This document shows, one piece after another, positions 2,238 through 39,589 of a stretch of 64,000 bases of DNA. This DNA is from an uncultured Myxococcales bacterium (GTDB lineage Bacteria > Myxococcota_A > Polyangia > Palsa-1104 > JAEUJZ01). The position numbers and the translations under genes are program-made. Numbering within the stretch: the stretch's first letter is position 1; every line of letters begins with the position of its first letter. The stretch lies in NCBI GenBank assembly GCA_964554495.1, contig CAZKOY010000005.1, positions 2,926 to 66,925 on the forward strand, read 5' to 3'. Under the pieces are notes generated by a model. The model was not told the DNA's origin. It saw only the letters and a list, made by a program, of their open reading frames with translations, and did not search any database.

Positions 2238-3268
2238 GCTGGCTTTCGGCTATCGAGCTTCGCCAGCCGTGGTTTCTCTTGTGTGCTGTGCTGGCGCTGC
2301 CCGTGTATTTCTGGGCGCTGCGAGGTGGTGGCCGCGTCGTTTTTTCGTCGCTGCGCTTGCTGCCCGCGGCGACGAAGACCTGGCGCACTCGTCTGCGCTT
2401 CGTGCCACCGCTTTTTCTTTCACTGGCCACGGCTGCGCTTGCGCTTGCTCTGGCGGGTCCGCGGGTGGCGGATCGCCAGACGCGCGTGAAGAAGCAGGGC
2501 ATCGCCATCATGCTGGTCATTGACGTCTCGGGCTCGATGCAGGCCCTGGATCTATCGACGCCAGATCGCGAGCGCACGCGCCTGGATGCCGTGCGCGAGG
2601 TCCTGCTCGACTTCGTCCTGGGTGGGCATGGGCTGCCGGGGCGGCCCGACGACTTGCTAGGTATTGTCAGCTTTGCCGCGTATGCCGATACGCGCTGTCC
2701 CCTAACGCTCGACCACGGCAACCTGGCGAAGTCCGCCAAGCAGGTCGAGATCGTCAGCAAGGAAGACGAAGACGGCACCGCCATTGGGGATGGCTTGGGC
2801 TTGGCGCTTGAGCGCCTGCGCGAGTCCAAGGCAGCATCGCGGGTCGCCATCTTGCTCACCGACGGCGTCAACAACCGCGGCGAGACCGCGCCGCTTCAGG
2901 CCGCCGAGCTGGCCGCGACGCTGGGCATCAAGGTCTATACCGTCGGAGCAGGAACGAACGGCATGGCTCCGGTGCGGGTGACCGACGCCTTTGGGCGCCG
3001 CTTCCTTTCGCGCATGCCGGTCGAGATCGACGAAAAGATGCTGCGCGCCATTGCCGAAAAGACCAGCGGCCGCTATTTCCGGGCCACCGATGACAAGACC
3101 CTGTCCCAGGTCTATCGCGAGATCGACGCGCTAGAGCGCAGCGAGTTCATCGAACAGCGCTACCGGCAGTATCACGAGTACTACCCACTGGCTCTGGCTG
3201 TGGGCCTGCTTCTGGCCGCCGCGGCCTGGCTGCTGCAAGCGACCCTGCTTCGGAGGGTGCCCCAGTGA
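2234..3268 (+). CDS. VWA domain membrane protein, BatA-like
   Basis: N-terminal TM helices, a VWA MIDAS block (MLVIDVSGSM ... LLTDGVNN) and a C-terminal TM. It sits in the canonical position after MoxR/DUF58. Confidence 0.9.
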   Translation: MSWLSAIELRQPWFLLCAVLALPVYFWALRGGGRVVFSSLRLLPAATKTWRTRLRFVPPLFLSLATAALALALAGPRVADRQTRVKKQGIAIMLVIDVSGSMQALDLSTPDRERTRLDAVREVLLDFVLGGHGLPGRPDDLLGIVSFAAYADTRCPLTLDHGNLAKSAKQVEIVSKEDEDGTAIGDGLGLALERLRESKAASRVAILLTDGVNNRGETAPLQAAELAATLGIKVYTVGAGTNGMAPVRVTDAFGRRFLSRMPVEIDEKMLRAIAEKTSGRYFRATDDKTLSQVYREIDALERSEFIEQRYRQYHEYYPLALAVGLLLAAAAWLLQATLLRRVPQ

Positions 3269-6822: not shown

Positions 6823-6825
6823 GCC

Positions 6826-14037: not shown

Positions 14038-14994
14038 CTACCAGTTGATCGACCAGGTTCCGCCGCTGTTGCGGATCATCGACGTGCCGGCGTTGGCCCA
14101 GCCGGCGCTCGGCCCATTGGTCCACAGCGCCGAGAGTCCGAAGAGCGACACGACGCTCCACATCGTGCCGTTGTAGCGATAGGTGTCGTAGGTGCCGTAC
14201 AGCCAGACGTCGGTGTCCGAGCTCATCCACAGGCGAGAGGCCTGATAGCCGCCCGAGATGCGCGCCCACTTGGTGCCGTCAAAAGTCCAGACGTTGTTGT
14301 CTTTGCGAGTGGCCCAGACCTTGTTTGCTGCGGTGCCGCGGATGTGGATAAAGGGCAGGGTGCTGTTGCTTGGCTGCTCGGTCCAGCTGCTGCCGTCCCA
14401 GCGCAAGAGCATGCCCAGGTCACCGCCGATCCATGCGTCGGTGGTGCTGGCTGCCCAGACCGTCAAAAGATGGTTGATCGAAGGCAGGCTGAACGAGCCC
14501 CAGCCCGAGCCGTCGTACTGGATGATGACGCCGCGGTCTCCGACGGCCCAGATGTTGCTGCCACTGGTACCCCAGATATCGTTGAGCGCCGATGTGTCGG
14601 GGACGGGGGTGGTGGCGCGGCTCCAGGCGCTGCCGTCCCAGTGAATGACGACGCCAGCTTCGCCCACCGCCCAGACGTCTTTGTCGCTGCTGCCCCATAC
14701 GGACAAGAGATCCTTGCCCGTCGGAACCGCGACGCTGCGCCACACCTTGCCGTTCCAGTGCAGCATCAGGCCGTTGGGCCCCACCGCCCAGACATCCTTG
14801 TCACCGCTGCCCCAGATGCGGGTTACCGCGGGCTGGACGAGCATGTAATCCGTTGGCGATACCGTCGGGCGTGACTCGGGCAGTGTGTCGCCTGCCTGCG
14901 GCAGGCTGCGGCTGTCGGGATCCTGTGGCCCACAGCCCAAGGACAGCAACGTCAGGGCTAGCGCCGGAACGGCCAACACGTGAGATGTCTTCAT
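14038..14994 (-). CDS. Secreted beta-propeller-like repeat lipoprotein
   Basis: I chose the ATG at 14994 (MKTSHVLAVPALALTLLSLGC lipobox) rather than the longer ORF to 15351. About seven roughly 40-aa repeats carry the motif D(V/I)WAVG...G.V..W(D/N)G..W. Confidence 0.75.
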   Translation of the reverse strand: MKTSHVLAVPALALTLLSLGCGPQDPDSRSLPQAGDTLPESRPTVSPTDYMLVQPAVTRIWGSGDKDVWAVGPNGLMLHWNGKVWRSVAVPTGKDLLSVWGSSDKDVWAVGEAGVVIHWDGSAWSRATTPVPDTSALNDIWGTSGSNIWAVGDRGVIIQYDGSGWGSFSLPSINHLLTVWAASTTDAWIGGDLGMLLRWDGSSWTEQPSNSTLPFIHIRGTAANKVWATRKDNNVWTFDGTKWARISGGYQASRLWMSSDTDVWLYGTYDTYRYNGTMWSVVSLFGLSALWTNGPSAGWANAGTSMIRNSGGTWSINW

Positions 14995-15336
14995 GGTTGC
15001 CTCACAGAGCAGGGCGCGCGGCCCACACCTTGAGGAGCCAAGCCTGCAGGCCACGCACTTTTCGGGGCCTCGACTGTAAGGACGGCCCGTCGACGCTGTC
15101 AATTTTCGGCCCTGCCCGCTTGAGCCCTGCCAGTGCCGGAACGGAACAGCGGGACCCACAAGCGCCGATGCCACACCGCGGATTTCGCGAAGCGGGGGAT
15201 CTGCGATCTCGTGTGGCGGCGGGCAGTGGTATAACCCGCGGCGATGGAACCGACGGCAGCCCAGGAACAAGACCGACGCGGCAGCCTCCGCGACGGTGAT
15301 AGGACACAGGACGCTTCGACTTCTGAGGGGCAGGCG

Positions 15337-16407
15337 ATGGTGGCCGAGCATGTGCAGGCGCCGCCCGCCGCAGCCCCCGAAGAAGAGCTGCTGCAGCTAA
15401 CGCGAGCGACGCGAGCACGTCTGCGCAAGCTGCAGGAACAGGGCGTGTCGGGCGTACCGAAGTCGCGCGCGACACCTCGGCCTAGCGGGGGGCGCTATGA
15501 CTTTCCTGGGGCATACGGGGCACCACATACAGACCCGAGCAGCGCGTCGGTGGCTGAGCACGTCGGGCCGCCCGCAACCGCAGGCCCTGGGGCTGCGGCG
15601 CTGGCCGCGATCGCTGCGCCGTCGTCGGTGCCCGTGTCGGCAGTGGCTGCCGCATCGGCACCGCGGGCGCCGCAGGTCCCATCGGCGCGAGCCCTGCCAT
15701 CGGCTGCAGCTGGGCGAGGCTTTTCCTTGGTCGAAGCGAGCTATCCCGAGCTGCCGCCAGCCGGCGCGCTGCGCGGGGCAGACGGCCTTTCCGAGCTGCG
15801 TCGACTGCTGGGCGACTGTCAGCGCTGCAAGCTGTGTCACGGTCGCAACAACCTGGTCTTTGCCGACGGCAGTCCCGATGCCTGGCTGGCCTTTGTCGGC
15901 GAAGGACCGGGGGCCGATGAAGACCGCTTGGGGCGGCCCTTTGTCGGAGCGGCTGGGCAGCTTCTGGATCGGATGATCGATGCGATGGCGGGTGAAGCCA
16001 AGCGCCGCGGTTATGCCCAGATCGTGCCGCACCTGTCGCGGCAGGCGGTGTACATCGCCAACGTGGTCAAGTGCCGCCCGCCAGACAACCGCACGCCCCA
16101 GCCGGACGAGATGGCGGCGTGCTCACCGTTTTTGCGTCGTCAGCTCTTGGCGCTGCGGCCGGGGCTGCGAGCCATCGTCGCGCTGGGGCGCACACCGACG
16201 CAGTACTTGCTGCGGACGACGGCGCCGATCAGCGGCCTGCGCGGCCAGTTCGCACAGTGGGAAGGCATTCCCGTGATGCCGACGTATCACCCCGCATACC
16301 TTTTGCGCACGCCGAGCGCCAAGCGGCAGGTGTGGGAAGACCTGCAGCGTGTCATCGATGCGCTAGCCGCGCCGGGCACGCCCGCGGAACACTCGGCTGC
16401 CCCGTAA
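15337..16407 (+). CDS. Uracil-DNA glycosylase, family 4, with long Ala/Pro-rich N-terminal extension
   Basis: The C-terminal domain has [63 protein letters not shown] and [11 protein letters not shown]. The start is uncertain: ATG at 15337 (GAGGGG 9 nt upstream) or the ORF-track start at 15244. Confidence 0.85.
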
Positions 16408-16505: not shown

Positions 16506-17003
16506 ATGGCCACTTCATCGCTCCTTCGTGTACTGGGTTTTTCACTGGCGCTGCTCGTCGCAGGTGCGCCGCATGCGCAAGCCGGGGGGCCAGCGCCTGG
16601 CACCATCGTCATCACCGAGCGCATGCTTAACCCCGCGCTTTCGACGTTTCAGTCGGACTTGAAGAGCGAGGCCCGCGCGACGCTGACCAAGAACTCCGAC
16701 AGCGAGTCGTGGAAGGTCCACTTCGTTGCGCACTTGAAGAAGTCTCCCGGATCGCCCGACGTGAACATCGTCTTTTATGAGCTGGGCCAAGCGGCCAAGG
16801 CCGCCAGCAAGTCCGCCGAGCCGCGTGAGCCCGTGCAGGCCTATCCGATCAAGACCAAGCAGACGGCGACGATCTTGATCTCGGAAGTGAACCTAAAGAC
16901 CGAAGAGGGCTTCAAGCCGGGTGGCAAGTATCAGGTGCTGATCACGCGCCTGATCAACGGCAAAGAAGAGGTCTATGCCCGGACCTCGCTGGAGCTGAAG
17001 TAG
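16506..17003 (+). CDS. Hypothetical secreted protein
   Basis: I chose the ATG at 16506 (MATSSLLRVLGFSLALLVAGAPHAQA signal peptide). The longer ORF from 16071 overlaps the UDG gene out of frame. Confidence 0.65.
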   Translation: MATSSLLRVLGFSLALLVAGAPHAQAGGPAPGTIVITERMLNPALSTFQSDLKSEARATLTKNSDSESWKVHFVAHLKKSPGSPDVNIVFYELGQAAKAASKSAEPREPVQAYPIKTKQTATILISEVNLKTEEGFKPGGKYQVLITRLINGKEEVYARTSLELK

Positions 17004-17011: not shown

Positions 17012-17677
17012 CTACAGGTTACGTTCTTCTTCGATGACCCAGCGGCCGCCGCGACACCACAGCGCGCTGCTCCAGCCGCCGGGCTTTCCCCAGGACAAGA
17101 CGCAGTAGCCTTCGCCATCTTTGCAAGGGGTACCAGGGCGTGGGCTTGGCTCGCAGCGTCCGTCGCCCAGGTGGCGAATTTGCGGCGGCGATGGCGGCAT
17201 CGGCGCTAGCTGCACAAGGGCGCTTGTGTCGCGGGCCGCAAGCAGGCGGACGCAGTGGCCGAGGATCTGGCTGCTTGTCGGCGGGCTAAGCGCGCTTGGC
17301 ATGCGCTGCGCTTCGTCGTTGCCGCGACGGAACACCAGGTGGGCCAAGACTTCGAAGCGCCCATCGTCGTACTGATCGTGCGAGGTGCCCTGGTACTGCA
17401 CGGAAAGACCGCTTGGACTGGTGCGGCGGCCACCGACGGGAATATCGAGCGTTGGCGCATCCGCGGGAAGTGGGCAGGCGTCTTTATGCTCGGCTGTCGA
17501 CGGCAGCGCCGCATCGGGTAGCGCAGCGCTGGGGACTGAACGTGCGGCACTCGATGGCGCATGCGCAGACGCCGGGCTCGCCGAGCGGGCCGCTGCCGAA
17601 ACGTCGCTGCGCGGCGGCACGACCGCTGGCGATCGGCAGGCCAGCAAGACAAGCAACAGCAGGCCATGGGGTCGCAT
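17012..17677 (-). CDS. Hypothetical lipoprotein
   Basis: Internal ATG at 17677 gives MRPHGLLLLVLLAC (lipobox). The C-terminus is Cys-rich. It is the last gene of the minus-strand cluster. Confidence 0.55.
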   Translation of the reverse strand: MRPHGLLLLVLLACRSPAVVPPRSDVSAAARSASPASAHAPSSAARSVPSAALPDAALPSTAEHKDACPLPADAPTLDIPVGGRRTSPSGLSVQYQGTSHDQYDDGRFEVLAHLVFRRGNDEAQRMPSALSPPTSSQILGHCVRLLAARDTSALVQLAPMPPSPPQIRHLGDGRCEPSPRPGTPCKDGEGYCVLSWGKPGGWSSALWCRGGRWVIEEERNL

Positions 17678-17718
17678 GAAGGCAGCGTAGCAGGCTCGCG
17701 CCAATCCGGTGCCGCGCT

Positions 17719-19020
17719 CTAATAGACCTGCGTCTCGGGCCCGAATGCGACGGGGGGACGCGGGCGGCCGCTCGTGCGCTCGGCTCGCGTGCGGATGGCT
17801 TCCAAGATGACTAGCTGCATGCCGACGTTGACGCCGTATTCCATGAGCGGCTCAAGCTTGTAAAGCTGGCGCATGACCAAGCTCGCGCGGTCGTACTGCA
17901 TCGACGATCGCAGGACGATCTGCGTGCCGCCTTGGCGCATCGGCACGAGGTCCCAGCGCATGCGTGCGCCTTTGAGGTCCCCAGACAGCCCCATCATGTC
18001 CATGGTGCGGCCCTGGACGCGGGCGCCATAGGTTGTGCGAAAAGACAAAAGGGGCAGTGACTGCTCGATATCCACCATGCTGGTCGTGTCTTGCGCGCCG
18101 GCTCCGACGCTCTGCGTAATGCTGGGGATATAGTTCTTCCAGTCTGACGTCTGTTCGACCAATGCCGAAATAAACTGCGAAGGAGCGGGGGTTCGATCAA
18201 TAAGCGATACCTCAGAAAGGCGGCCCCCCTGACTGCGCAATAAGACCACGGTGCCGCGGTCTGCCAAGAAGTCAACCGATGCGGATTGGGATGGCGCGGG
18301 AAGCGCTGCAATCGGTGCGACCTGCTCAGCCCGGCGCTTGACCTGCAGCAAGAGCGTGCTCTGTGCGACCAGTGCCATACCCTGTTCCAGCGTCGGGACT
18401 TTTTCCAGAACCTTGGCGATCATGCCGCCGGACTTCGTCACTTCAGTAAAGCCATACATAACAAGCAGGGTGCCGCCGTATACACTGTAAAATTCAAAGC
18501 GAAAACGGCGTACCGAATAATCAAAGTTGGGATCGATATCGCGAATCTCGACCGGCGCCCCGGCCATTTGCTGATTTGCAGGCAATTGCAAATAACGATT
18601 TGTTCCTTCAACGGAAAATACACCATAGCTTAGCTGATAACTATAATCGAAGCTGCCGTCTGGATTGTTAGATACGATTGACTTCTTAAAGTTCTGGACA
18701 TATTCGCGATACTGGTCGGCTCGCCACAGCACCTCGCGCACGACGCTGGGCGGGGCGGCGACGAACGTGAACAGCGAAAGCTGGCGCAGGTGGCCGTCGG
18801 GCTTTGACTCGATCACCGCGATGTCGGTGCTGCGCAGAAGCGGAGCCAGCGACACAAGCTTTTCCTGGGGCCAGCCCGCAAGTGGGACCATCCGCTTGAC
18901 CTGTGCCCGCGCAGGCGACACCAGCAGGCCCAGGCCGATCAGGCACAGCCACAGCGCCTGGCTGCGGACAAGACTGCGCAAGCAAAAGCGAGGGCAGGGG
19001 CGGGGGATGAGTCGGCTCAC
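17719..19020 (-). CDS. Secreted protein with two tandem SRPBCC/START-like domains (putative lipid-binding)
   Basis: I chose the GTG at 19020 (VSRLIP...LWLCLIGLGLLVSPARAQ signal). The longer ORF to 19491 overlaps the deacetylase gene. Each half shows an SRPBCC-like pattern (APPSVVREVLWRADQYREYVQNF... and APSQFISALVEQTSDWKNYIPSI...). Confidence 0.6.
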   Translation of the reverse strand: MSRLIPRPCPRFCLRSLVRSQALWLCLIGLGLLVSPARAQVKRMVPLAGWPQEKLVSLAPLLRSTDIAVIESKPDGHLRQLSLFTFVAAPPSVVREVLWRADQYREYVQNFKKSIVSNNPDGSFDYSYQLSYGVFSVEGTNRYLQLPANQQMAGAPVEIRDIDPNFDYSVRRFRFEFYSVYGGTLLVMYGFTEVTKSGGMIAKVLEKVPTLEQGMALVAQSTLLLQVKRRAEQVAPIAALPAPSQSASVDFLADRGTVVLLRSQGGRLSEVSLIDRTPAPSQFISALVEQTSDWKNYIPSITQSVGAGAQDTTSMVDIEQSLPLLSFRTTYGARVQGRTMDMMGLSGDLKGARMRWDLVPMRQGGTQIVLRSSMQYDRASLVMRQLYKLEPLMEYGVNVGMQLVILEAIRTRAERTSGRPRPPVAFGPETQVY

Positions 19021-19054
19021 GGGGAATGCCTCCCGACGGGCGCTGGCCCGGCAG

Positions 19055-19762
19055 TTAGTTGGGCGCAAGCTCGCGCATGGTGTGGAAGGTGGCACCGCGC
19101 TGCCGGAAAAAATCGACGGTTGCGGCCAGCGAGTCCAAGGCGGGCTGCCCGGTGCGATAGCGGCAGTCGAGCGGAATCGGCCAGCCGGTCGCGTCGACGA
19201 ATTCCCAGGGGTGAAAGAAAAAGACAGCCGGGCCGCGTAGCTGCGACAAGAGCGCGCTGCGCAGCCTCGCTGGAATACGCAGCCACGAGGGGGCCACTGA
19301 GGCGGGAATGCGGGACAGACCGTGCGCGCGGCTGGGCTCGACGAAGAACGAGCCGGGTTTGTGGCGCCCGATCGACGAGTCCACGCGATAGCCGTGCTGC
19401 GACAAGATGGGCAGAAACGGCTCGGGAAAGTCGAGGTTGGGGGCGCGAAACGACACAACCTCGCCAAAGCTGCGCAGCGTGGCCGAGGCATCGCGGACCT
19501 CGCGCTCGGCCTCGTCGGGCGACATCAGGCTGAAGCGCTTGTGGCTATCGCCGTGACAGCCTAGCTCGTGCCCAGCCTCGACGATGCTTTGCACCACCTG
19601 GGGAAAGCGCCGAGCGACATCGCCGGTCGTAAAGAACGTGCCGCGGATCCCAAGCTGCTTGAGCCGAGCCAGCACCCGCGGTGTGCCCTGCAAGACGCCG
19701 AAAAAGGTGCTCAGGTACGGCGGGCAGTCTTGCTCCATATCGACGGTGATGAGGATCTGCAT
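19055..19762 (-). CDS. Polysaccharide deacetylase (NodB/CE4 family)
   Basis: MQILITVDMEQD, GIRGTFFTTG, AGHELGCHGDSH and SFRAPN are NodB homology motifs. It lies 18 nt downstream of the methyltransferase gene. Confidence 0.88.
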   Translation of the reverse strand: MQILITVDMEQDCPPYLSTFFGVLQGTPRVLARLKQLGIRGTFFTTGDVARRFPQVVQSIVEAGHELGCHGDSHKRFSLMSPDEAEREVRDASATLRSFGEVVSFRAPNLDFPEPFLPILSQHGYRVDSSIGRHKPGSFFVEPSRAHGLSRIPASVAPSWLRIPARLRSALLSQLRGPAVFFFHPWEFVDATGWPIPLDCRYRTGQPALDSLAATVDFFRQRGATFHTMRELAPN

Positions 19763-19780
19763 GGGCGGGTCTCCGGGCTG

Positions 19781-20440
19781 CTAGACGGATCCGCTGTAGC
19801 GCGCGGGTTCATGGCGTTGCGAGGTGTCGGCATCGCTGCGCTCGCCCAAGATGAACGAGCGATCGTGCCAGATGTTGGCGTTTTCGTTGGTGTGGCGACC
19901 CAGGATGCGCAGGCCGCTTGCTTCCATGGCCGCAACGATTTCGTCGACGGTGCGGATGCGATAGGGCGATGCCTCCAGCGGGAACCATGGGGCCCCGGTG
20001 AAGCGGTGCAGCAGCGTCGTGCGCACGGTGCTGTCGACAACCAAGACATAGCGACGGCTCAAGCGGCGCAGGGCGGCGATGAAGGGCTCAGCATCGCGGA
20101 AGTGGTGCATCGCGCCATAGGTGATGGCGACGTCGAAGTTGCCGGTCACGGTCATCGAAAGGACATCGGCCAGCACGATCGGCAAGCCGCGGCGACGGGC
20201 TTTTTCGACGAGGCGCGGGTTGATCTCGAAGCCATGGATGGTGTCAAGCTGCAGAAGGTCGCGCAGCCTGGCGGTTACGTGGCCATCACCACAGCCGACA
20301 TCGACGGCGGTGCGGGCGACGACGCCGTGAGCGGAAAGAAAGCCGCGCAGATCGCGCAGCTCTTTTTCCAGGTCCTGAACATGCACGCTGCCCGTCGTGA
20401 ACGAGTAAAAGTACTGCTCGATATTGGGTAAGCCAAACAT
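19781..20440 (-). CDS. Class I SAM-dependent methyltransferase
   Basis: ATG at 20440 with GGAGAC upstream. SAM motif VDVGCGDGHVTARL, followed by FDVAITYGAMHHF. Confidence 0.85.
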   Translation of the reverse strand: MFGLPNIEQYFYSFTTGSVHVQDLEKELRDLRGFLSAHGVVARTAVDVGCGDGHVTARLRDLLQLDTIHGFEINPRLVEKARRRGLPIVLADVLSMTVTGNFDVAITYGAMHHFRDAEPFIAALRRLSRRYVLVVDSTVRTTLLHRFTGAPWFPLEASPYRIRTVDEIVAAMEASGLRILGRHTNENANIWHDRSFILGERSDADTSQRHEPARYSGSV

Positions 20441-20502
20441 TGCGTGTCTCCTGTGCGGACGTGCCGATCGGTGCAAGGCGTCGGCGACCTGCGCCCGCCA
20501 CT

Positions 20503-21690
20503 CTAGCAAACTGCGACGGTCTTTTCGTTCAGCGGCAGACCAAAGCGATCGAGGAGGGGCTCGGTCTGTTTTCGCTCGCGCGCCACGGCCAAGTCATAGA
20601 CGTTGAGCTGTCGCTCGATGATGTGTTCCCACGCGAAGCGTCCGACGCGCGTCGTGGCCTGCTGCGCCATGCGCTGCCGCAGCACGGGATCGGCAAGCAG
20701 TCGCACGATGAAGTCGGCGAACTCGTCGCGATTGTTCGCCAGATATCCTTCTGAGCCGTGGGCTACGACGTCGGCGACGCCGCCCTTATTCATGGCCACG
20801 ACAGGTAAGCCAGCAGACAGCGCCTCGACGCAGACGATGCTCATGGCTTCGCGCTCGGTGGGCAAGACGAAGAGCGTCGATTCCTCGAAGATCTCGCGGA
20901 TCTTCGGGCGGTCGAGAAAGCCGGGAAGCTCAAGGTGCTGCGTGACGCCAAGCTGGGCAGCTTCTCGCTCGACCTTGCGGCGGGCGGTGCCGTCGCCAAT
21001 CAGCGTGAACACGGGCCGCAGCGGCTCGGGAAGCTGGGCATGCACGCGTGGGATGGCGCGCACGACGTCAAAGGGGCGCTTGCGGTTGGTAAAGCGCATG
21101 ACGCTGACGACGCGCGGGCGGATCGGCGGTCGCGGCTGCGTCTTCCAATCGGCCACGTGGACGCCGTTGTGCAGCACGAAGACATCGTCTCGACCTGTGA
21201 TGCGCGCTAGCTGATCGGCGACGCACTGGCTGACCCCGGAAAGCAGCGTCGGCCAGTGCCCCCAGTCCGAGACGCGGTGCAGGGCTTCAAAGAAGCGCAG
21301 CCAGCCGGCTCCCAGCCACGAACACTCGGTGAATAGGCAGGGAATGCCAAGCTGACGCGCTTGGTAGGTCGCGACGTGGGTCATCGGCAGAAACGCCGCT
21401 TGCACGTGGACGATGTCATAGCGCTCGCGCTCGAACAGCCGACGCAGAGCCGCCGCGGCCGAGGGATCGCGAATGGTCTGTAAGAACGGCAAGCGCGGCA
21501 AGCCTAGGCGATGCAGCGTCACGCCGTCGTCATAGCTGGCCGGCCCCGGTGTGTTGCACACCACATGTACGTCGTGCCCGCGACGGGAAAGCTCGCGGGC
21601 TAGGTCGCGAACGTGAAGCTCAAGGCCGCCGATGCGCGGCAGGTACATCTCACTGACCAGAGCAACTTTGTATTTCTTCCGAGGCTGCAT
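20503..21690 (-). CDS. Glycosyltransferase family 4 (GT-B, retaining)
   Basis: ATG at 21690 (MQPRKKYKVALVSEMYLPRIGGLELHVRDLARELSRRGHDVHVV). The C-terminal block EREAMSIVCVEALSAGLPVVAMNKGGVADVV is the EX7E-type GT4 signature. Confidence 0.9.
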   Translation of the reverse strand: MQPRKKYKVALVSEMYLPRIGGLELHVRDLARELSRRGHDVHVVCNTPGPASYDDGVTLHRLGLPRLPFLQTIRDPSAAAALRRLFERERYDIVHVQAAFLPMTHVATYQARQLGIPCLFTECSWLGAGWLRFFEALHRVSDWGHWPTLLSGVSQCVADQLARITGRDDVFVLHNGVHVADWKTQPRPPIRPRVVSVMRFTNRKRPFDVVRAIPRVHAQLPEPLRPVFTLIGDGTARRKVEREAAQLGVTQHLELPGFLDRPKIREIFEESTLFVLPTEREAMSIVCVEALSAGLPVVAMNKGGVADVVAHGSEGYLANNRDEFADFIVRLLADPVLRQRMAQQATTRVGRFAWEHIIERQLNVYDLAVARERKQTEPLLDRFGLPLNEKTVAVC

Positions 21691-21751
21691 GACGCAGGTC
21701 CGCTCTCGCTTTCTGGGCGTGACGAGTGAGCAAACAAAGGGGAGCGGCCGG

Positions 21752-24355
21752 CTAGCTCTGCACCGGGGCTTCGGCGGGCTGCGTCGCTTGGAAGCGCGCC
21801 TGCAGCTTGGCATAGAGCACGGCCACGGCGGGCAGCAGGGTTGCGGCGGCGAACAAGCAGGTGACTTCGCCGATGTCCGCGGCCAAGCCAAACGAGCGCA
21901 GCGCCCGGTTGCTGGCCAGAAGCAGCGTCGAATAGCCGATAATCGTCGTGGCCGAGCACAGCGCCACCGCGGATCCCGTGTCGGTGATGATGCTGCGGAT
22001 GCTGGCCGGGCCCTCTGTTCGCAGGCGCGACCAGATGTTGGCGGCGTAGTCAGCCCCGACACCCAGCGTGATCGGCATGGTCACGAAGTTCATGAAGTTC
22101 AGCTTCAGGTTGATCAGGCCGAGAATCCCCAAGAGCCAGGTCATGCCGACCGCGACGGTCAGAAGCACGGGCAAGGCGCCCAGCGGGCCGAACATCAGGA
22201 TCACCAAGCTGACCACACCGACCAGCGCGATCAGCGTCAGCTTGGGGGCGTCGCGATGGATGGCATCGACCATGCCCGCAAAGATCGATCCCGCGCTGGC
22301 TGCCACCCAGGTCTTGCCCAGTGCCTGCACGGTCAGCGATTCCGACAAGCGGATCAGGTCATGGCCGTTCCAGCCGGCATAGTTGGTGAAGTCGGCGTCG
22401 ATGCCAATCAAGCGCCCGCGCTGTCCGTCGGATTCAGTAAAGGCTTCCAGCACCAGCTTGGGCAGATCGTCGGCGGTCAGGCGACGCAGGTACTCAGGCG
22501 GGCGGAAGGCTTGCAGATCCTTCCACTCGCTCTCGTCCATCAGCGACTGGTTCTGGTCGAGCTTGTGACGAATGCGCGCGAGGATCGCCAGCTTTTCGTC
22601 TTGCTCCGTCGGCAGGGCCGAATTCAGCGTGCGCACCGTCGCCAGCGTGTGCTTGTCGCCGCGCGCCTTGTCTTGCTTGCGCATGGCTTCAGCGACGATG
22701 TCGGCCTGCTCGGGTGAGTCGACCAGCAAGACGCCATCGTTACCGATGTAGCCGGCGCCGACGTTGCCCATGCCCAGCGAATCGGCGCGGCCCCACAGCT
22801 TCTCAGACTCCGTCGGATCGCTGCGCAGGTTGTTGAAGTTCCACTCCAGCGGGTCGACGGCGTACTTGCGCAGTGGCAGCAGCGCCGCGGCAAACAGCAG
22901 CACCGAGACAAACGCCACAGAAATCGGTCGCCAAGCGAGCAGGCGGCCCAGAAGTCCGAACGGCCAGTGCCACAAGCTGGGCTTGGGTGTGAACACGCCG
23001 GGAATCAGCCGCTCGCCGAGCAACACCAGCGGGGGAGCGAGCACGATCGAGGACAACCACACCAAGATCATGCCGGCGCCACCGAGGACACCGAACTGGC
23101 TGAAGCCGCGGAAGTCGGTGAAGGTCAAGCTGCCATAGGCGATGCTGGCGGCCAGCATGGCGGTCGCGGTGCCGAGCATGGTGGCTGACAGCGCAATGCT
23201 CAGCGCTCGCTCCGTCGAGCGACCCGAGCGCCGCTCTTCGCCATAACGGGCTAAAAGCATAATTGGTGTATTGATGCCATTGCCAATAATGATTGATACT
23301 AGAAAGGCTGTATTGATATTTAGATACTTGATTAGCACCTGCGCCAGCATCAGGGCTAGCAAGACGCCGTACAGCGCAGGCAGCGTAATCACCAGCAGCA
23401 TGCCGATGCGGCGGAAATACAGATAAATCGCCAGCATGACGACGGCGACGCAGACCATGGTGGCCATCGTGATGTTTTCTTGCACCGTCTTTTGTTCACC
23501 CAGCGCGAGCGCGATGTGGCCGGTGTAATGGACCTTCATCTGGGGGTGAAACGACGTCGGGTTCAGGTCGTTGACGATGCCCTGCACCGTCAGAAATGTC
23601 TGCTTGTCGCCCATGGTGGCGAAGCCGTCGCGCTGTCGCCACAGCATCACGCCGACCGAGTCGATGCCGTTTTCGCGGCTGGAAAAATACGTCTCTTTCA
23701 GCTCGGGACTGCCAGCCTGCTCGGGGGGGACCACGACGGGCTGCGGCTGCGGGGTGCTGGACGCCAAGACCACGCGCGAGTCAAGATCGCGGCGCAGCGC
23801 GGTTAGCTCGGCCTCGGCATCGCCTTCCAAGTCGACGAACACCGGCAGCTTGCGACGGGCGAGGATGCGGTCGAGCAGCGACTCGGCCTTTTCTAGCTCG
23901 CTCTTTTCCGCGTACAGCCACTTCCACTTGGCGGCGTAGCGCGGCACTTCGTCGTCGGGACGCCACTGAATCGACGAGAACACGCTGGGAATCAGCGGAT
24001 CGAGCTTGGTCTTTAGCGCCTTGAAGAAGCGGCGGTTGGCGAGCGGGTCGGGGCTGTCGACGATCAAGACCAGGTTGGTGGCGCTCTTCTGACGGCCGGC
24101 GATCTTGCGCAGGGCCGCGACCGAGGGGTGGCTCTCGGGCAGTAGCTCAGCGAGATCGGTGCGTAGCTCAAGTTGCTTGGCGTAGCTTCCGGCCAAGAGC
24201 CCAAGGAGCAGCGCCGCCAGCAGGATGACGCCGCCACGACGCGCTGCGAAGGTGACATAGCGAGAGCACAGCCGCTCCAAGCGACTGCCCGGCGACGCAG
24301 GATGCGATGAGCCAGGCGACGGAGGAGGAGACGCGGGGACGGGAAGCGAGCTCAT
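21752..24355 (-). CDS. MMPL/RND-superfamily transporter (HpnN-like lipid exporter architecture)
   Basis: 867 aa with two blocks of multiple TM helices, each preceded by a large soluble loop. It contains the conserved segment LIKYLNINTAFLVSIIIGNGINTPIMLLARYGEERR. Confidence 0.9.
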   Translation of the reverse strand: MSSLPVPASPPPSPGSSHPASPGSRLERLCSRYVTFAARRGGVILLAALLLGLLAGSYAKQLELRTDLAELLPESHPSVAALRKIAGRQKSATNLVLIVDSPDPLANRRFFKALKTKLDPLIPSVFSSIQWRPDDEVPRYAAKWKWLYAEKSELEKAESLLDRILARRKLPVFVDLEGDAEAELTALRRDLDSRVVLASSTPQPQPVVVPPEQAGSPELKETYFSSRENGIDSVGVMLWRQRDGFATMGDKQTFLTVQGIVNDLNPTSFHPQMKVHYTGHIALALGEQKTVQENITMATMVCVAVVMLAIYLYFRRIGMLLVITLPALYGVLLALMLAQVLIKYLNINTAFLVSIIIGNGINTPIMLLARYGEERRSGRSTERALSIALSATMLGTATAMLAASIAYGSLTFTDFRGFSQFGVLGGAGMILVWLSSIVLAPPLVLLGERLIPGVFTPKPSLWHWPFGLLGRLLAWRPISVAFVSVLLFAAALLPLRKYAVDPLEWNFNNLRSDPTESEKLWGRADSLGMGNVGAGYIGNDGVLLVDSPEQADIVAEAMRKQDKARGDKHTLATVRTLNSALPTEQDEKLAILARIRHKLDQNQSLMDESEWKDLQAFRPPEYLRRLTADDLPKLVLEAFTESDGQRGRLIGIDADFTNYAGWNGHDLIRLSESLTVQALGKTWVAASAGSIFAGMVDAIHRDAPKLTLIALVGVVSLVILMFGPLGALPVLLTVAVGMTWLLGILGLINLKLNFMNFVTMPITLGVGADYAANIWSRLRTEGPASIRSIITDTGSAVALCSATTIIGYSTLLLASNRALRSFGLAADIGEVTCLFAAATLLPAVAVLYAKLQARFQATQPAEAPVQS

Positions 24356-24522
24356 GGTTTTTTATCTAGGTATCTAGGATTAAGGCCCAGAGGGCGGCTA
24401 GGTTGCTACGTATGTGCTACAGGGTGCTGCGTTTTCTGACGACTAGGGCAAGGCGCAAGAAAGAAACAAATAGGACTGACAAAATCGTGTGGCAAGTAAA
24501 GACGTGCGAGCGGCGCGGATCG

Positions 24523-25656
24523 TCATGGCGAGTTTGTGCGGCTGGCAGAGCGCTGCCACAGAGAGCGCCGCGCAGTCGGCTGGCCCCGACTGTCGGTGGG
24601 CAGGCAAAGGTTCCACTGCCGTCGAAGCTCGAACAGGCCGACGAGAGTGACGGGCACGAAGTGGACCATGTGATAAAGGACGGCGATGGCCAGGGCGCGC
24701 GAGGTGTCGATGCCCAGGGCGGAAAAGCCCATGACTAGGCCGGCCTCAATGACGCCAAACTGGCCCGGTGTCGACGGTGCGAGGCTGGCCAAACGCCCGA
24801 TCATCATGAGGACGACGCAGGTGCCAAAGCCAAGCTGGGTGCCGACGGACGCTGCGGCCATGCCGATGCTGAGCGCATTGGCGACCTCGACGAGAAGCGA
24901 GCAGCCAAGGCCCGCCAGCCACAGACCCGGACGCCGCAGAAGCTGCATGGCCTGAGCGGTTCGTCGCAGAAATCCGGCGCTCTCGGCGGCGATGTCTTCT
25001 CCGTCGCGCAGGGCATCGGGGTGCTGGCGCCCCCAGATCCAGGACACGGCCAGAAACGCGATGACGCCACCGGCTCCGATGGCTCCGCCGATGAACATGG
25101 CCTTGTTCAGGGCATAGGGCAGGGGCGTGTACAGCGCCACACCGACGGCCAAAAGACCCAGGCAGAGTCCGTCGATGATGGCGGTGACAAGCTGGCTGGC
25201 GACCAAGCGACCCGTGGTGTAGCCGTGCCCGCGCTGCAAGAGCACGGTGCGCACGACGAAGGCGGCTGGCGACGGCAACAGGTTGTGTGCGGCCGATGTG
25301 GCGAGATAAATCGAAGTCAGCGCGCCGAGTCCGACGCCGGGTCCTTGTACCGGCAGCACCCGCAGAAGCAGCCACAGGCGCAGGCTGCCGGCCAGCATGC
25401 AGACGGCCACGGCTGGCACCGCCGCGGCCAGAAAGCGATGGTCTGCGGTCCACAGCGCGCTCTTGAACAGCGAAAAGTCCACCGAGCGGATGGCGAGCCA
25501 GATCAGCAGGCCTTGCAACAACACGCCAAGCACGGTGCGTATCCAGCCTGGCGCCTTGGGCGAAAACCCCGATAGCAAAGACGCGCGATCTAGCCTCGTC
25601 GGCGGGGACGAAAGGCCAGGGCTAGAAGGCTCGCTATCGGTCGGTGCCTGCAGCAT
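24523..25656 (-). CDS. Flippase-like membrane protein (lysylphosphatidylglycerol-synthase TM-region family, HpnL-like)
   Basis: 377-aa polytopic protein. The pattern LLIWLAIRSVDFSLFKSALWTADHRFLAAAVPAVAVCMLAGSLRLWLLL and the C-terminal GQFGVIEAGLVMGFSALGI are typical of this family. Confidence 0.78.
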   Translation of the reverse strand: MLQAPTDSEPSSPGLSSPPTRLDRASLLSGFSPKAPGWIRTVLGVLLQGLLIWLAIRSVDFSLFKSALWTADHRFLAAAVPAVAVCMLAGSLRLWLLLRVLPVQGPGVGLGALTSIYLATSAAHNLLPSPAAFVVRTVLLQRGHGYTTGRLVASQLVTAIIDGLCLGLLAVGVALYTPLPYALNKAMFIGGAIGAGGVIAFLAVSWIWGRQHPDALRDGEDIAAESAGFLRRTAQAMQLLRRPGLWLAGLGCSLLVEVANALSIGMAAASVGTQLGFGTCVVLMMIGRLASLAPSTPGQFGVIEAGLVMGFSALGIDTSRALAIAVLYHMVHFVPVTLVGLFELRRQWNLCLPTDSRGQPTARRSLWQRSASRTNSP

Positions 25657-25762: not shown

Positions 25763-26347
25763 CTATGGGCAGGGGATGGCACGAAACTGCGCCGCCGCTT
25801 GCACATCGCGCAGGCCACCAGGCAGCGTGCTGCACGAGAAATCGCCCTCGAACAAGGCGAAGGGATCCGGCCCCTTGACGCGGATGCTGCAGACAAGCTC
25901 AGCGGCGCGGTCAGACGTGACCCAGGTCATGGGGTTCGATGTCTCGAACGTGCGGGCATCCAGGCTAAGCGGCAGCTTTAGGCTGATTTCTCCGACGCTG
26001 ACGGTGTCCTTGTCGATGCGCATGGAGGCATAGGGGGCAGCACCCAGGCCCTGCAGCGAGATAGTGATGCCGGCTGCGCCTCCGGTGGCGGCGACGACGA
26101 TCTTTTGGCCAAAGCGCTGGCACTGCAGTACCTCGGTGACGACGGGCAGCTTCAAGGGCGTGTTGCCCGTGGTGGTGCCGGGGGGTTTCACGGTGTACGT
26201 TAGGTCCATGTACTGAGTGGGCGCTGGGGGCGCTGGGTTGCCACAGCCAGGCGCGGCGGCCATGACCACCAGGGCTCCTACGGCCACAAGACCGCGGCGC
26301 ACTCTGAAACGGCGTAGTCTAGATAGGCGATGGGTCTGCATGTCCAC
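25763..26347 (-). CDS. Hypothetical lipoprotein
   Basis: Signal/lipobox VVMAAAPGCG. No recognised family. Confidence 0.55.
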   Translation of the reverse strand: MDMQTHRLSRLRRFRVRRGLVAVGALVVMAAAPGCGNPAPPAPTQYMDLTYTVKPPGTTTGNTPLKLPVVTEVLQCQRFGQKIVVAATGGAAGITISLQGLGAAPYASMRIDKDTVSVGEISLKLPLSLDARTFETSNPMTWVTSDRAAELVCSIRVKGPDPFALFEGDFSCSTLPGGLRDVQAAAQFRAIPCP

Positions 26348-26479: not shown

Positions 26480-29400
26480 ATGCCTGACGCACTCAGCAAT
26501 CCTTATCGTGGCCTGCGGCCTTACGGCCTGGCCGATGCCGATCGCTTCCATGGCCGTCGTCGACTGACGCAGCGCGTGATCGAGCGGCTGCAGGGCGGGG
26601 CGAAAAAGCTCTTGCTGACGGGGCCCTGTGGCAGCGGCAAGACCTCGCTGATCATGGCCGGGTTACTCCCGTCGCTAGGCAGCTTGTCGATGCACGGTGT
26701 GGTCATCGCGCATCCGGGGCTTGATCCATTTGAGCAGCTAGCGAGGCAGGGCCTGTCTGGGGCTGCGGAAGACCTGCTGGGCGCGCTGCGCGCAAAAGCC
26801 GGATCGGAAAAAACCCTTCTGTTCATCGACCACGCCGAAGAGCTAGCGGCTGCAGAGCTTGGCTTGGCCCAGCGCAACCTGCTGCAGCAGCTTGCTCAGG
26901 GCTTTGGCGGGGCAGATAGGGGGCCCGAGCCGACGGTGCTGATCGCGGTGCGGACCGACTGCCTGGATGCTCTGTCCGGCGCCGCGCCACAGCTTGTGCC
27001 CTGGCTCGACGCGCCCACTGTGTACGTACCTGCGGGCCTAGAGCTATCCGAGTGGATGGCCATCGTGCGCGAGCCGGCGCGAGCCGCAGGGCGCGACGTC
27101 GAAGCGGCGCTGATCTCGGCCATCGGCAGCGATCTTGCGGCGCTGACCCAAGAAGTCAGCGAGCGCGGGGCTGCCGTCTTGCCCCACCTGTCGTTTGTGC
27201 TGCACGCGCTGTGGCAGCAAGGGCAGGAAGGATCTCTACGCTGCGCAGACTATCAGCAGCTGGGGGGGCTGCGGCATAGCCTGCAGCGCTGGGCAGATGC
27301 CGCCTGGGCGTCTTTGCCAAGTCATAGCGCGGCTCGGCGGGCGCTCTTGCCTCTGCTTTCAATCGTCGGTCGCAGCGAGCGCGGACTGCTTCTTGCGCGA
27401 CCTCTGTCGCTTGCGGCTTGGCGACTGCACGAAGCGACGGCCAGCAGCTCGCTAGAGGCGACGTCGGCGGCGGGCCTGGCCGCACTATTGGACAGTGGAC
27501 TTATCCACATCGACGAGACGCAAGACAGCGTCGAGTTGGTTCATTCCGTGTTGTCAGAGACCTGGCCGCAGCTCGCCCAAATGCACCGGGATGAGCAGCG
27601 GTTTGCGACCTGGCATCGCAGCATGACGACGCTGGTCTTGCCCCGCCCCGACGCTGATGGCATGGCAGCACGGCCGACGTCAGTGGCTTCGTCGCCGGCA
27701 CCTGCAAGCGGGCAAGTCAGCAGCGAGGCGGCTCAGCCGGCGGTGCCTGCATCGACGCTGTCAGGTACCCAGCTTGCCGAAGCAGAGCGCTGGCTGGGCG
27801 AGCGCCCCGGTGAGATCGACGGGGCGGTCCGCCAGCTCATCGAAGACTGCCGGCAGAACCGCAGCAGTCGCCAGCAAGCCCTTCGCTCGCGTCCGCCGGG
27901 AACCTTGGGGCCACTGCCGCGACCGGGGCTGCCCTGGCCGCTGGCGCTGGGCGCCGGGCTTGTGCTGGTGCTCTTGGGCCTAGCGGCGCAGCGCTTTGTT
28001 CACTATCGCGAGCTGCGTGGCCGTGACTTCGATCTGGCCACCGAGCGCGGAGCGCGAGCATCGCTTTTGGTGATGCAGCCCGGCCAAGACGGTACGGCGT
28101 TGGCGTTGGCCATCAAGGCGGTGGCCCCGGCTCTGCGGGCTGGGCGACCGGTACCGCTTCTGGCCAAAGAGGGCCTGATGACCGCGTATTCGTTGGCCCG
28201 GAACAGCCAGCCGCTGCATGGTCACACCGATCGCGTGGACAGCGCGGTGTTTGACCCCAGCGGCAGCCTGGTTTTGACGGCCAGCACCGACCGCACGGCG
28301 CGCATCTGGGACGCGCGGACCGGCCGCCAGCTGCTGACGTTTTCGGGGCATCGCCAGATGCTGACCAGCGCCAGCTTTTCAGCCAATGGACAGACGGTTC
28401 TGACCACCAGCGCCGATGGGACGGCTCGGCTCTGGGAAGTCAGCAGTGGTCGGCTCTTGCACGAGCTAGTCGGCCATGGCGTGGCCGTGGAAAACGGGCA
28501 GTTTTCCCCCAATGGCAGCGCCGTGGTGACGGCGGGGCATGATGGCGCGGCTCGCATCTGGGATGTACAAAGCGGCCGCTTGCTGCACACGCTGGCCGGC
28601 CACCGTGACCGCGTGACGACGGCCACGTTTTCACGCGATGGACGTCGCATCTTGACCGCAAGCTGGGATCGCTCGGCTCGCATCTGGGATGCCGGCAGCG
28701 GGCGCTTGCTGCGCGTCTTGGTTGGGCACAACGCCCGTCTCTATCTGGCCGCGTTTACGGCTGACGGGCAGCGCGTGGCCACGGCGGGCTGGGATCAAAG
28801 CGTGCGTCTGTGGAACGTAGCCGAAGCTCCGACGGCCCCGGATACCGGCCCGCCACCGCTAGGCCCCGACGGCGCGCAGCTTGCCGAAACCATGCAGGTC
28901 GGCGAAAGCCCACCCGCTGTCCTGCCCCATGAAGAGCTGATTCAGGTGCTTGTGTTTTCCCCCGATGGCGCATGGCTAGCAACGGCCGGGGCAAACGGCA
29001 TGCTCAAGCTGTGGGATGCGCGCAGCGGCACTCTCAAGGCCAAGCTCGGCGGGCACTATGGCAGCGTCTATGGCTTGGACTTTGCGTCGGACAGCAAACA
29101 CTTTGTCAGTGCGGGCAGTGACCGCACCGTGCGCCTGTGGAACGTCGGAGTCGAGCGCGCCGTCGCCGTCTTGTATGGCCACAGCAGCCATATCTACACC
29201 GCGGCATTTTCACCCAGCGGCGATCGGGTGGTCACCGCCAGCTATGACCAGACCGCGCGCATCTGGGATGTTCGCGCTGGGCAGCCGGTGGCCATCTTGC
29301 AAGGGCATCGCCGAGGCGTCACCAGCGCCAGCTTTTCGCGACAAGGCACGCGCATTATCACCTCCAGCGAAGATCACACAGCCCGCCTGTGGGCGTGGCC

Positions 29401-39558: not shown

Positions 39559-39559
39559 C

Positions 39560-39579: not shown

Positions 39580-39589
39580 TTGAGAACCT

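Follow-up and report, generated by a model that had tools for sequence, protein, structure and literature searches.

How diderm bacteria transport lipids other than lipopolysaccharide (LPS) and phospholipids to the outer membrane is largely unresolved, and a compact gene cluster in an uncultured Myxococcales bacterium (assembly GCA_964554495.1, contig CAZKOY010000005.1) raises the question of whether it is a candidate answer. The cluster lies in a 64,000-nt stretch of this contig, hereafter called the window. It encodes a flippase-like membrane protein, a resistance-nodulation-division (RND) transporter of the MMPL/HAE3 type, a GT4 glycosyltransferase, a methyltransferase, a NodB-type deacetylase, a secreted protein with two START-like domains (di-START) and a putative lipoprotein. 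We propose that it is a two-part system, in which amino-glycolipid biosynthesis of the glycosyltransferase–deacetylase–flippase (S-D-F) type is joined to export by the RND transporter and the di-START protein, and we assign this reading a probability of about one half.

The layout was taken from an open reading frame (ORF) map of the window and a survey of the most plausible start codons. Seven minus-strand genes follow one another at positions 24523-25656 (flippase-like), 21752-24355 (RND), 20503-21690 (GT4), 19781-20440 (methyltransferase), 19055-19762 (NodB), 17719-19020 (di-START) and 17012-17677 (putative lipoprotein). A 167-nt spacer separates the flippase-like gene from the RND gene, and the gaps among the last six genes, from the RND gene onward, measure 61, 62, 18, 34 and 41 nt. 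Genes, gaps and spacer agreed exactly with those in the original prediction, which had been made from the letters alone, and its family calls were also right: Pfam returned LPG_synthase_TM, MMPL, GT4, Methyltransf_25/11 and Polysacc_deac_1, and AlphaFold2 and Foldseek returned the fold of the di-START protein. Just 3′ of the last gene, a consensus scan matched a terminator-like hairpin on the minus strand (16968-16987; GAGGTCCGGGCATAGACCTC and then a T-rich tail), and this hairpin (16987-16968 in the direction of transcription) is likely the operon end. The next gene (about 16506-17003) lies on the plus strand and is therefore convergent with the last cluster gene. This tight same-strand layout, closed at its 3′ side by a terminator-like site, speaks for the proposed system. 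Coding status was assessed against the sister genome L001 (MAG-82), a metagenome-assembled genome (MAG) whose cluster proteins share 81–99% amino acid identity with those of the window by tblastn. The ratio of nonsynonymous to synonymous changes (pN/pS) was 0.04–0.27 for six cluster genes (all but the MMPL gene), a sign of purifying selection, and these six, including the unannotatable lipoprotein, are therefore genuine coding genes.

The gene set recurs well beyond this species. Co-localization was defined as presence within 10 kb by jackhmmer, with the START gene and, independently, the RND gene as anchors. Among 24 non-redundant START-anchored loci, the flippase-like gene was present in 18, NodB in 17, MMPL in 15 and GT4 in 13, and among 27 RND-anchored loci the corresponding counts were 16 for START, 18 for the flippase-like gene and 17 each for NodB and GT4. 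The RND-anchored set added six complete clusters that the START-anchored scans had missed, and its loci without partners were short contigs or second RND paralogues of the same MAGs. The MMPL, flippase-like, GT4, NodB and di-START genes occurred together in at least 16 distinct loci; RND orthologues 57–65% identical to that of the window adjoined di-START genes, and the five-gene set stayed together in relatives whose di-START proteins were 40–55% identical. Precomputed Pfam neighborhoods of metagenome contigs contained the same gene set. Such recurrence in dozens of diverged loci is more than chance. In both scans, the cluster-bearing genomes were exclusively uncultured Myxococcales/Polyangia MAGs.

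Loss of synteny in relatives had been named beforehand as an outcome that would undermine the idea of a cluster. It was not seen: the five genes remained co-localized, although their order and strand varied widely between loci. In three loci (L002, L003 and L026), moreover, GT4, NodB and the flippase were distant paralogues (about 27–30% identity) from the same Pfam families. Shuffled order combined with paralogue replacement points to selection for a functional set, not merely to inherited gene order, and the five-gene association is thus specific and selected rather than simply inherited synteny. A distant subfamily of secreted di-START proteins (about 20% identity) from Polyangiales and Sandaracinaceae MAGs (L028-L040) served as a control. 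None of its 13 loci had an MMPL, GT4, NodB or flippase-like gene nearby; instead, the neighborhood was a fixed one of housekeeping type and consisted of transaldolase, NAD kinase, an ABC-2 permease, a MurA-like protein, an FGE-sulfatase and a TPR-PEGA protein. The linkage of START to the cluster is therefore subfamily-specific.

What the enzymes make depends first on the glycosyltransferase (20503-21690, minus strand), a 395-residue retaining GT4 enzyme of the GT-B type (Glycos_transf_1, 7e-31; Glyco_transf_4, 2e-24). It carries an E-x7-E motif and is predicted to be cytoplasmic, with no signal peptide and one weak internal hydrophobic window at residues 282–300. Its best NCBIfam match was BshA (TIGR03999), at 106.2 bits against a cut-off of 273.7, and the second best was the PEP-CTERM/XrtA glycosyltransferase, at 84 bits against 409. 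In Pfam, the PIGA domain scored 24.6 bits, under its cut-off of 27, and PIGA matches of the orthologues ranged from sub-threshold to threshold. When a profile of the orthologues was searched against the PDB, BshA was matched over its full length (E 8e-37), followed by PimB′, MshA and PimA. The nearest relatives therefore comprise two N-acetylglucosamine (GlcNAc) transferases, BshA and MshA, and two phosphatidylinositol mannosyltransferases, PimA and PimB′. Because BshA, MshA and PimB′ are the nearest relatives and a de-N-acetylase is adjacent, the sugar transferred would be GlcNAc, with UDP-GlcNAc as the probable donor. A lipid acceptor is suggested by the neighbors, since these are membrane or lipid-handling genes (flippase-like, RND and START). 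The succession of a retaining GT4 enzyme, here a probable GlcNAc transferase, and a de-N-acetylase is shared with PIG-A/PIG-L, MshA/MshB and BshA/BshB, but those pairs use LmbE/PIG-L-type deacetylases where the window has a NodB protein, and none of their equivalog cut-offs was reached.

The same top match, BshA in both the family and the structure searches, would also suit a soluble product. In that case GT4, methyltransferase and NodB would build a glucosamine (GlcN) conjugate, such as a thiol resembling bacillithiol or N-methyl-bacillithiol, or a compatible solute, and the membrane genes would be unrelated neighbors. A pathway of BshA, deacetylase and N-methyltransferase does exist in Chlorobi. 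We nevertheless consider this explanation highly improbable: the BshA score (106 bits against 274) falls well short of the cut-off, neither a BshC-like cysteine ligase nor an LmbE-type BshB was found in any Pfam-annotated locus, and the presence of the membrane and secreted partners tracks that of GT4 and NodB over the shuffled loci, as it would not for unrelated neighbors.

The deacetylase (19055-19762, minus strand), whose gene is separated from that of GT4 only by the 219-residue methyltransferase gene, is a 235-residue member of the NodB/CE4 family (Polysacc_deac_1, 5.4e-18). It has neither a signal peptide nor a transmembrane segment and is predicted to be cytoplasmic. Ten orthologues were invariant at D8, E10 and D12 (TxDxExD), H70 and H74 (HGDxH), R106-A107-P108 and H184 (FHPWEF), so that the CE4 metal-binding and catalytic residues are intact across them. 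Its nearest solved relatives were assorted CE4 esterases, and its best NCBIfam match was the XrtA/PEP-CTERM polysaccharide deacetylase (TIGR03006; 75.2 bits, cut-off 276.2, not reached).

This match, together with the XrtA glycosyltransferase as second-best match of GT4, raises the alternative that GT4 and NodB make and partly deacetylate a secreted or surface exopolysaccharide of the poly-N-acetylglucosamine, Pel or XrtA type, with the membrane proteins taking part in its export; the distant GT4 paralogue of L002 also matched stp2 and stp3. Both XrtA scores, however, lie far under their cut-offs (75 against 276 bits and 84 against 409 bits), and placement of the two enzymes in characterized exopolysaccharide or peptidoglycan-modifying clades, which the original prediction had listed as damaging, found no support, as neither enzyme reached any curated equivalog cut-off for such pathways. 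The Pfam-annotated loci contained no polymerase, processive synthase, initiating phosphoglycosyltransferase, Wzx/Wzy, pair of outer-membrane polysaccharide export and polysaccharide co-polymerase (OPX/PCP) proteins, or exosortase. There is typically one cytoplasmic glycosyltransferase per locus, and RND and START proteins are lipid-handling rather than polysaccharide-handling machinery. A polysaccharide product is accordingly very unlikely.

Two experimentally characterized systems come closest to the biosynthetic part. In Clostridioides difficile, HexSDF (2023) makes aminohexosyl-hexosyl-diradylglycerol with a glycosyltransferase acting on lipid, a polysaccharide deacetylase of the NodB type and an MprF-like flippase (PMC10128005). 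In Pseudomonas aeruginosa, GpgSDF (2025) combines a GT4 enzyme, a deacetylase and a UPF0104 flippase to make glucosaminyl-phosphatidylglycerol (GlcN-PG; PMC12713373). In both, the N-acetylated lipid accumulates once the deacetylase is lost (PMC10128005, PMC12713373). Like HexSDF, the window cluster has a NodB-type deacetylase, an MprF-like flippase domain that stands alone and a glycosyltransferase, which in the window would act on a lipid, but HexS is annotated as an enzyme resembling monogalactosyldiacylglycerol synthase and MurG, not as GT4, and the two-component regulation found in C. difficile has no counterpart linked to the window cluster. Since C. difficile is a monoderm, HexSDF also needs no export to an outer membrane. 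With GpgSDF, the cluster shares a cytoplasmic GT4 enzyme, a cytoplasmic de-N-acetylase and a predicted flippase of the UPF0104/LPG_synthase_TM family in one operon, as well as the proposed logic of a GlcNAc-lipid that is converted into a GlcN-lipid and then flipped. The window GT4 is no orthologue of GpgS, as it matched the GpgS model (GlcN_PG_synth, NF053787) at 47 bits (E 1.5e-12) against a cut-off of 480, and only in the C-terminal half. GpgD is a COG3233-type deacetylase rather than Polysacc_deac_1, and no RND, START or methyltransferase protein accompanies the Gpg system. The authors of that study stated that they do not know how GlcN-PG is carried to the outer membrane (PMC12713373).

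These precedents divide the earlier claim that the combination is undescribed. For the trio of glycosyltransferase, deacetylase and flippase, the claim no longer holds in view of HexSDF and GpgSDF, and it is outdated because HexD is a NodB-type deacetylase and GpgS a GT4 enzyme; for the coupling of the trio to an RND transporter and a di-START protein, it apparently still stands.

The methyltransferase (19781-20440, minus strand) is a 219-residue class-I enzyme dependent on S-adenosylmethionine (SAM), with matches to Methyltransf_25/11/12/23/31 at about 1e-10 and no signal peptide or transmembrane segment. In Nod factor synthesis, NodB exposes the GlcN amine and the small class-I methyltransferase NodS N-methylates it. 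The window pair resembles NodB/NodS in that the methyltransferase weakly matched NodS in Pfam (PF05401; 21.8 bits, cut-off 24) and in NCBIfam (NF041650; 15.6 bits, E 0.0099, cut-off 300), both below the cut-off, and that NodS gave the best target-normalized TM-score (TMt) in the fold search. It differs in its substrate, presumably a lipid-linked monosaccharide instead of a chitooligosaccharide. A profile search against the PDB placed amino-sugar N,N-dimethyltransferases of the TylM1 type on top (E 1.6e-7), whereas the Foldseek ranking was flat across C-, O- and N-methyltransferases (NodS, TMt 0.72) and did not discriminate subfamilies. Judging from these similarities, the methylated atom might be the amine.

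The distribution of this enzyme is narrow. Its family comprises 15 clusters at 90% identity, it was present in 2 of the 24 START-anchored loci, and it belonged to the cluster only in L001 and L020/L021, which form the clade of the window; more distant homologues occupy other contexts. The methyltransferase is therefore a clade-specific tailoring enzyme, and the earlier view of it as a full part of the cluster had to be narrowed to this clade. As a core component it was rejected, the family being small and clade-restricted and its place being taken elsewhere by a radical-SAM gene. In clades without the methyltransferase, a radical-SAM protein of 348–354 residues is encoded directly beside GT4 (L005 5489-6535, L022 5485-6534, L024 4120-5184 and others), in six START-anchored and ten MMPL-anchored loci. 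It belonged to no NCBIfam equivalog, its match to HpnH was weak (45 bits, cut-off 225), and HpnJ was absent from the best 25 of 53 families. Its position suggests an alternative tailoring of the same head group. Separately, methyltransferase homologues of 44–48% identity were paired with VTT/DedA-domain membrane proteins in two loci (L069 1996-3236 and L070 1015-2487). The VTT/DedA family has been implicated in lipid flipping.

The first membrane protein (24523-25656, minus strand; 377 residues) belongs to the LPG_synthase_TM/UPF0104 family, matching PF03706 over positions 2–302 of the 302-position model (E 1.2e-41). It corresponds to a stand-alone MprF flippase domain, as Pfam detected no synthase or other second domain, and a hydropathy scan gave at least six hydrophobic helices. 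In NCBIfam, matches to the flippase-like model TIGR00374 and, weakly, to MprF fell below their cut-offs; these two alone were listed, and HpnL (TIGR03476) gave no match at E ≤ 0.01. A sequence search of the PDB returned no match. The second membrane protein (21752-24355, minus strand; 867 residues) has 12 predicted transmembrane helices and two large periplasmic loops and is a member of the MMPL family (PF03176; E 2.2e-24, 86.5 bits, cut-off 20.5). Its best NCBIfam model was HpnN (TIGR03480; 161.5 bits, cut-off 751.85), and it also matched a second HpnN model (NF052374; 104.7 bits, cut-off 1100), HAE3 (152 bits, cut-off 352) and, near-full-length but weakly, BstA (NF045600; 119.4 bits, cut-off 1400), without reaching any of these cut-offs. 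The nearest solved structure was Burkholderia HpnN (5khn, E 1.3e-18). The RND protein is predicted to be a lipid extractor or exporter.

HpnN is a hopanoid RND transporter for which HpnM and HpnT have been proposed as periplasmic shuttles beside the lipoprotein HpnS, and hpnI/J/K/L genes belong to the same system (bioRxiv 10.1101/2025.07.29.667474). Among solved and curated proteins, HpnN is the one closest to the window MMPL protein, HpnL shares a Pfam superfamily with the flippase-like protein, and the concept of an inner-membrane RND protein with a secreted soluble lipid carrier is common to both. The Hpn head-group chemistry, with a glycosyltransferase, a deacetylase and a radical-SAM enzyme, also parallels that of the window. 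The components themselves differ, with a di-START carrier instead of an MlaC-like or lipocalin one, GT4 instead of GT2, and NodB instead of a YdjC deacetylase; all scores were far under the equivalog cut-offs, and no hopanoid genes lay near the cluster. A second relative is the sterol transport system BstABC of Methylococcus (eLife 2024), in which an RND protein is encoded together with periplasmic and outer-membrane-associated lipid-binding proteins (PMC10942540). BstA matched the window MMPL protein over nearly its full length, but at 119 bits against 1400, and no glycosylation module is attached to the Bst system. BstB and BstC are not known to have the START fold.

These relationships invite a triterpenoid acceptor, that is, a non-homologous analogue of the HpnI/HpnK/HpnJ/HpnL/HpnN set acting on a hopanoid, or a steryl glucosaminide. 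The best family and structure matches of the RND protein (HpnN and BstA), the shared superfamily of HpnL and the radical-SAM gene beside GT4 all agree with it. Sterols are the classic ligands of START domains and are produced by some myxobacteria, and the cholesterol glucosyltransferase of Helicobacter pylori is a GT4 enzyme. Against this stand the Hpn and Bst equivalog scores, which are far under their cut-offs, and the flippase-like protein without an HpnL match at E ≤ 0.01; the radical-SAM protein, for its part, lacked HpnJ among the best 25 of 53 families and matched HpnH only weakly. No squalene or oxidosqualene cyclase gene was found in the window or in the Pfam-annotated neighborhoods. 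A triterpenoid acceptor thus appears distinctly unlikely.

The di-START protein (17719-19020, minus strand; 433 residues) combines a Sec-like signal peptide at residues ~16–38 with an apparent ARA/Q cleavage site (…LLVSPARA|QV) and two START-like domains at ~60–235 and ~250–417. Profile searches gave no Pfam and no NCBIfam match, including none to PF03364 or PF10604, although 5 of 40 homologues carried PF03364 and one of these also PF10604. An AlphaFold2 model built from a 30-sequence alignment (mean predicted local distance difference test score [pLDDT] 87.4, predicted TM-score [pTM] 0.85) comprised an N-terminal helix followed by two units of beta-sheet and long helix, which is the helix-grip fold. 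In Foldseek, the di-domain aromatase/cyclase (ARO/CYC) proteins StfQ and BexL ranked first (E 6.5e-13, probability 1.00), and single START proteins were matched with the same probability at TMt values of up to ~0.8. The earlier tandem-SRPBCC call was thus borne out by AlphaFold2 and Foldseek but not by profile hidden Markov models. An alignment between the two halves of the protein (E 2e-4) indicates that an internal duplication took place long ago.

A clustered collection held 40 relatives of this protein at E ≤ 1e-3, and a profile search of 1.84 billion representatives yielded 423 clusters, of which 73 reached E ≤ 1e-30. The family is unannotated, apart from one member whose source name, "RatA", is an SRPBCC annotation, and members of the wider family as a rule also begin with a signal peptide. 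The di-START protein is predicted to be a periplasmic lipid carrier. With GT4, methyltransferase and NodB in the cytoplasm, a polytopic flippase and RND protein in the membrane, and a signal peptide on START, the predicted topology fits the order of events that had been proposed.

Accessory genes occur in subsets of the loci and include Acetyltransf_6 (Fem-like), GT-C glycosyltransferases resembling GT87 or PMT_2, a Metallophos lipoprotein and PhoD. The GT-C-like genes, present in about 10 of the 24 START-anchored and in many MMPL-anchored loci, bear on a route of the Arn or Lgm kind. Here, GT4 would load GlcNAc onto polyprenyl phosphate, NodB would deacetylate it, the flippase would flip it and a periplasmic GT-C enzyme would transfer GlcN to an outer-membrane lipid or protein, leaving MMPL and START to deal with either its acceptor or its product. 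Such carrier-lipid logic is that of ArnC/ArnD/ArnEF/ArnT and Bordetella LgmA-D, and ArnD is a NodB-family de-N-acylase. The window, however, contains no GT-C-like gene although its cluster is otherwise complete, and the GT-C matches in Pfam are near or under their cut-offs (GT87, 22 bits against 25; PMT_2, 25.9 against 26.1). To our knowledge, polyprenyl-phosphate sugar synthases are inverting GT2 and not retaining GT4 enzymes. We judge this route unlikely, with more appeal for those loci in which GT-C genes do occur. Metallophos, radical-SAM and GNAT genes are likewise absent from the window, where the methyltransferase gene is the sole accessory gene of those named here. In about 10 loci, a Metallophos lipoprotein of ~495 residues and an unassigned one-transmembrane protein of ~490 residues with a faint kinase-like match form a conserved pair 1–8 kb from the cluster (L002 12221-15190, L020 12128-15115, L024 17469-20402 and others); they may be periplasmic head-group remodeling enzymes or merely syntenic neighbors.

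For the S-D-F and export system that we favor, the analysis shows how the genes are laid out, to which families and folds their products belong, that catalytic motifs are intact, what topology is predicted and that the genes co-localize in relatives. From this we infer the route below, and with it which sugar is used, that the acceptor is a lipid and which one, which way the transport runs, that START acts as the carrier and where the methyl group is placed. At the cytoplasmic face of the inner membrane, GT4 would glycosylate a membrane lipid with an N-acetylhexosamine, most likely GlcNAc supplied by UDP-GlcNAc, and NodB would strip the N-acetyl group to give a free amine. In the clade of the window, the methyltransferase would then tailor the head group, perhaps at the freed nitrogen, which is where NodS acts once NodB has done so. 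The LPG_synthase_TM protein would move the modified lipid to the periplasmic leaflet, from which the HpnN-like RND/MMPL protein, driven by the proton gradient, would pull it out of the outer leaflet of the inner membrane. It would finally be passed to the di-START protein for transit through the periplasm and delivery at the outer membrane.

Several observations weigh against this route. No cluster protein reached any curated NCBIfam equivalog cut-off, and therefore no function is transferred by orthology. BshA and MshA, the nearest relatives of GT4, act on soluble acceptors. The best structural matches of the di-START protein are polyketide cyclases, to which its global TM-scores are low (0.26–0.37), because the domains are arranged differently. 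Nothing in the window points to a particular acceptor-lipid pathway, and it contains no exopolysaccharide, exosortase, hopanoid or sterol genes. Some START loci (L014 and L019) had no partner at all. All of the 19, 13 and 27 genome loci are MAGs with no cultured host, so that mis-binning is possible. In addition, the role of the flippase is still only predicted for Hex and Gpg themselves (PMC10128005, PMC12713373).

We also analyzed the 167-nt intergenic leader (24356-24522, minus strand) upstream of the MMPL gene. The earlier description of it as AT-rich held in relative terms, since its GC content is 50.9% compared with 64.8% for the window. It had no Rfam match and no RNA-structure signal (z = +1.41), and a consensus scan detected neither a sigma-70 promoter nor a terminator. 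The MMPL ATG (…GATAAAAAACC ATG) is not preceded by a Shine-Dalgarno-like motif. The ~60 nt adjoining this ATG (24356-24415) are conserved with L042 (9940-10000), whose MMPL protein is 86% identical to that of the window; beyond them, the leader has diverged. The leader is probably an internal promoter or 5′ untranslated region (UTR), and the conserved part may be an element of either kind. A riboswitch or attenuator was rejected on the grounds that there was no Rfam match, no excess structure and no consensus promoter or terminator and that only the 3′ ~60 nt were conserved.

The two putative lipoproteins at the ends of the cluster are confined to the species. The last gene (17012-17677, minus strand; 221 residues) begins with MRPHGLLLLVLLAC, which agrees with a loose PROSITE-type lipobox rule (lipobox-like LLAC at residues 12–15), and its N-terminus was sub-threshold in the hydropathy scan. 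It matched no Pfam or NCBIfam family. Its counterpart in L001 was 81% identical by tblastn and 89% by global alignment (pN/pS 0.27), jackhmmer found no homologue in any other locus, and the genes downstream of START in other loci are unrelated to it. Because it is species-specific, its membership in the system is doubtful. The idea of a conserved outer-membrane acceptor of the HpnS/BstC kind as a core part was therefore rejected, and with it the earlier inclusion of this gene in the cluster proper. An eighth same-strand ORF (25763-26347; 194 residues) lies 106 nt upstream of the flippase-like gene and encodes a putative lipoprotein with an AAPGC lipobox-like motif and an N-terminal hydrophobic segment at residues 19–37. 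Its pN/pS of 0.12 against L001 indicates purifying selection. As its only homologue is in that same-species MAG, with none in the other loci, it is probably not a core part of the cluster.

The flanks of the cluster contain further genes. On the minus strand, 14038-15351 is an ORF of 437 residues, probably a lipoprotein of ~318 residues with its start at MKTSHVLAVPALALTLLSLGC; repeated "VWAVG"-type motifs suggest a beta-propeller, Pfam gave no match, and identity to L001 is 91%. On the plus strand, 26480-30277 encodes a 1265-residue nSTAND1 nucleoside triphosphatase fused to about two WD40 propellers, which is transcribed divergently from the cluster and is not kept beside it in other loci. 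Also on the plus strand, a contiguous shikimate and menaquinone supercluster (35886-51879) encodes chorismate synthase, 3-dehydroquinate synthase, 5-enolpyruvylshikimate-3-phosphate synthase, polyprenyl synthase, 3-deoxy-D-arabino-heptulosonate 7-phosphate synthase, UbiE/MenG, MenF, MenB, MenA, MenC and MenE, together with an 860-residue MenD-MenH-like fusion of a thiamine pyrophosphate enzyme and an alpha/beta hydrolase (44673-47255). A DUF58/VWA/BatA/BatD-type "aerotolerance" operon occupies 172-9606 of the same strand and includes large VWA proteins of 1185 and 926 residues.

What is apparently new here is the physical and evolutionary coupling of an S-D-F module to an HpnN-like RND transporter and a secreted di-START shuttle; a literature search on clusters of RND with SRPBCC or of UPF0104 with MMPL found no paper describing this arrangement. 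The scope of this novelty is limited in that all component families are known, precedents for each of the two halves have been published and none of the organisms is in culture. In particular, an RND transporter with a periplasmic lipid shuttle has precedents in BstABC and in the proposed HpnN/HpnM/HpnT system.

If the proposed function is correct, START would be the third fold among the proposed RND lipid shuttles, beside the MlaC-like and lipocalin carriers of hopanoids and the carriers of sterols that resemble periplasmic binding proteins. The remodeling of membrane charge by amino-glycolipids, which is relevant to resistance against cationic antimicrobials, would be extended to Myxococcota, and a defined set of five to six genes could be expressed heterologously to identify the lipid. 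A broader and rather doubtful extension is that a lineage of uncultured Polyangia possesses dedicated outer-membrane lipid biogenesis. A cationic glucosaminyl lipid, N-methylated in the clade of the window, would be made, flipped and delivered by RND and di-START, relatives with GT-C enzymes, phosphoesterases and Fem-like acyltransferases would elaborate it into a glycolipid resembling phosphatidylinositol mannosides or glycosylphosphatidylinositol, and where a cell has little or no LPS, it would possibly rank among the main lipids of the surface. Sorangium cellulosum So ce56, a polyangial myxobacterium, is reportedly described as lacking LPS in the title of a 2011 paper by Keck et al. We regard the cluster as a candidate route by which an amino-glycolipid could be delivered to the outer membrane in Polyangia, the class that includes Sorangium.

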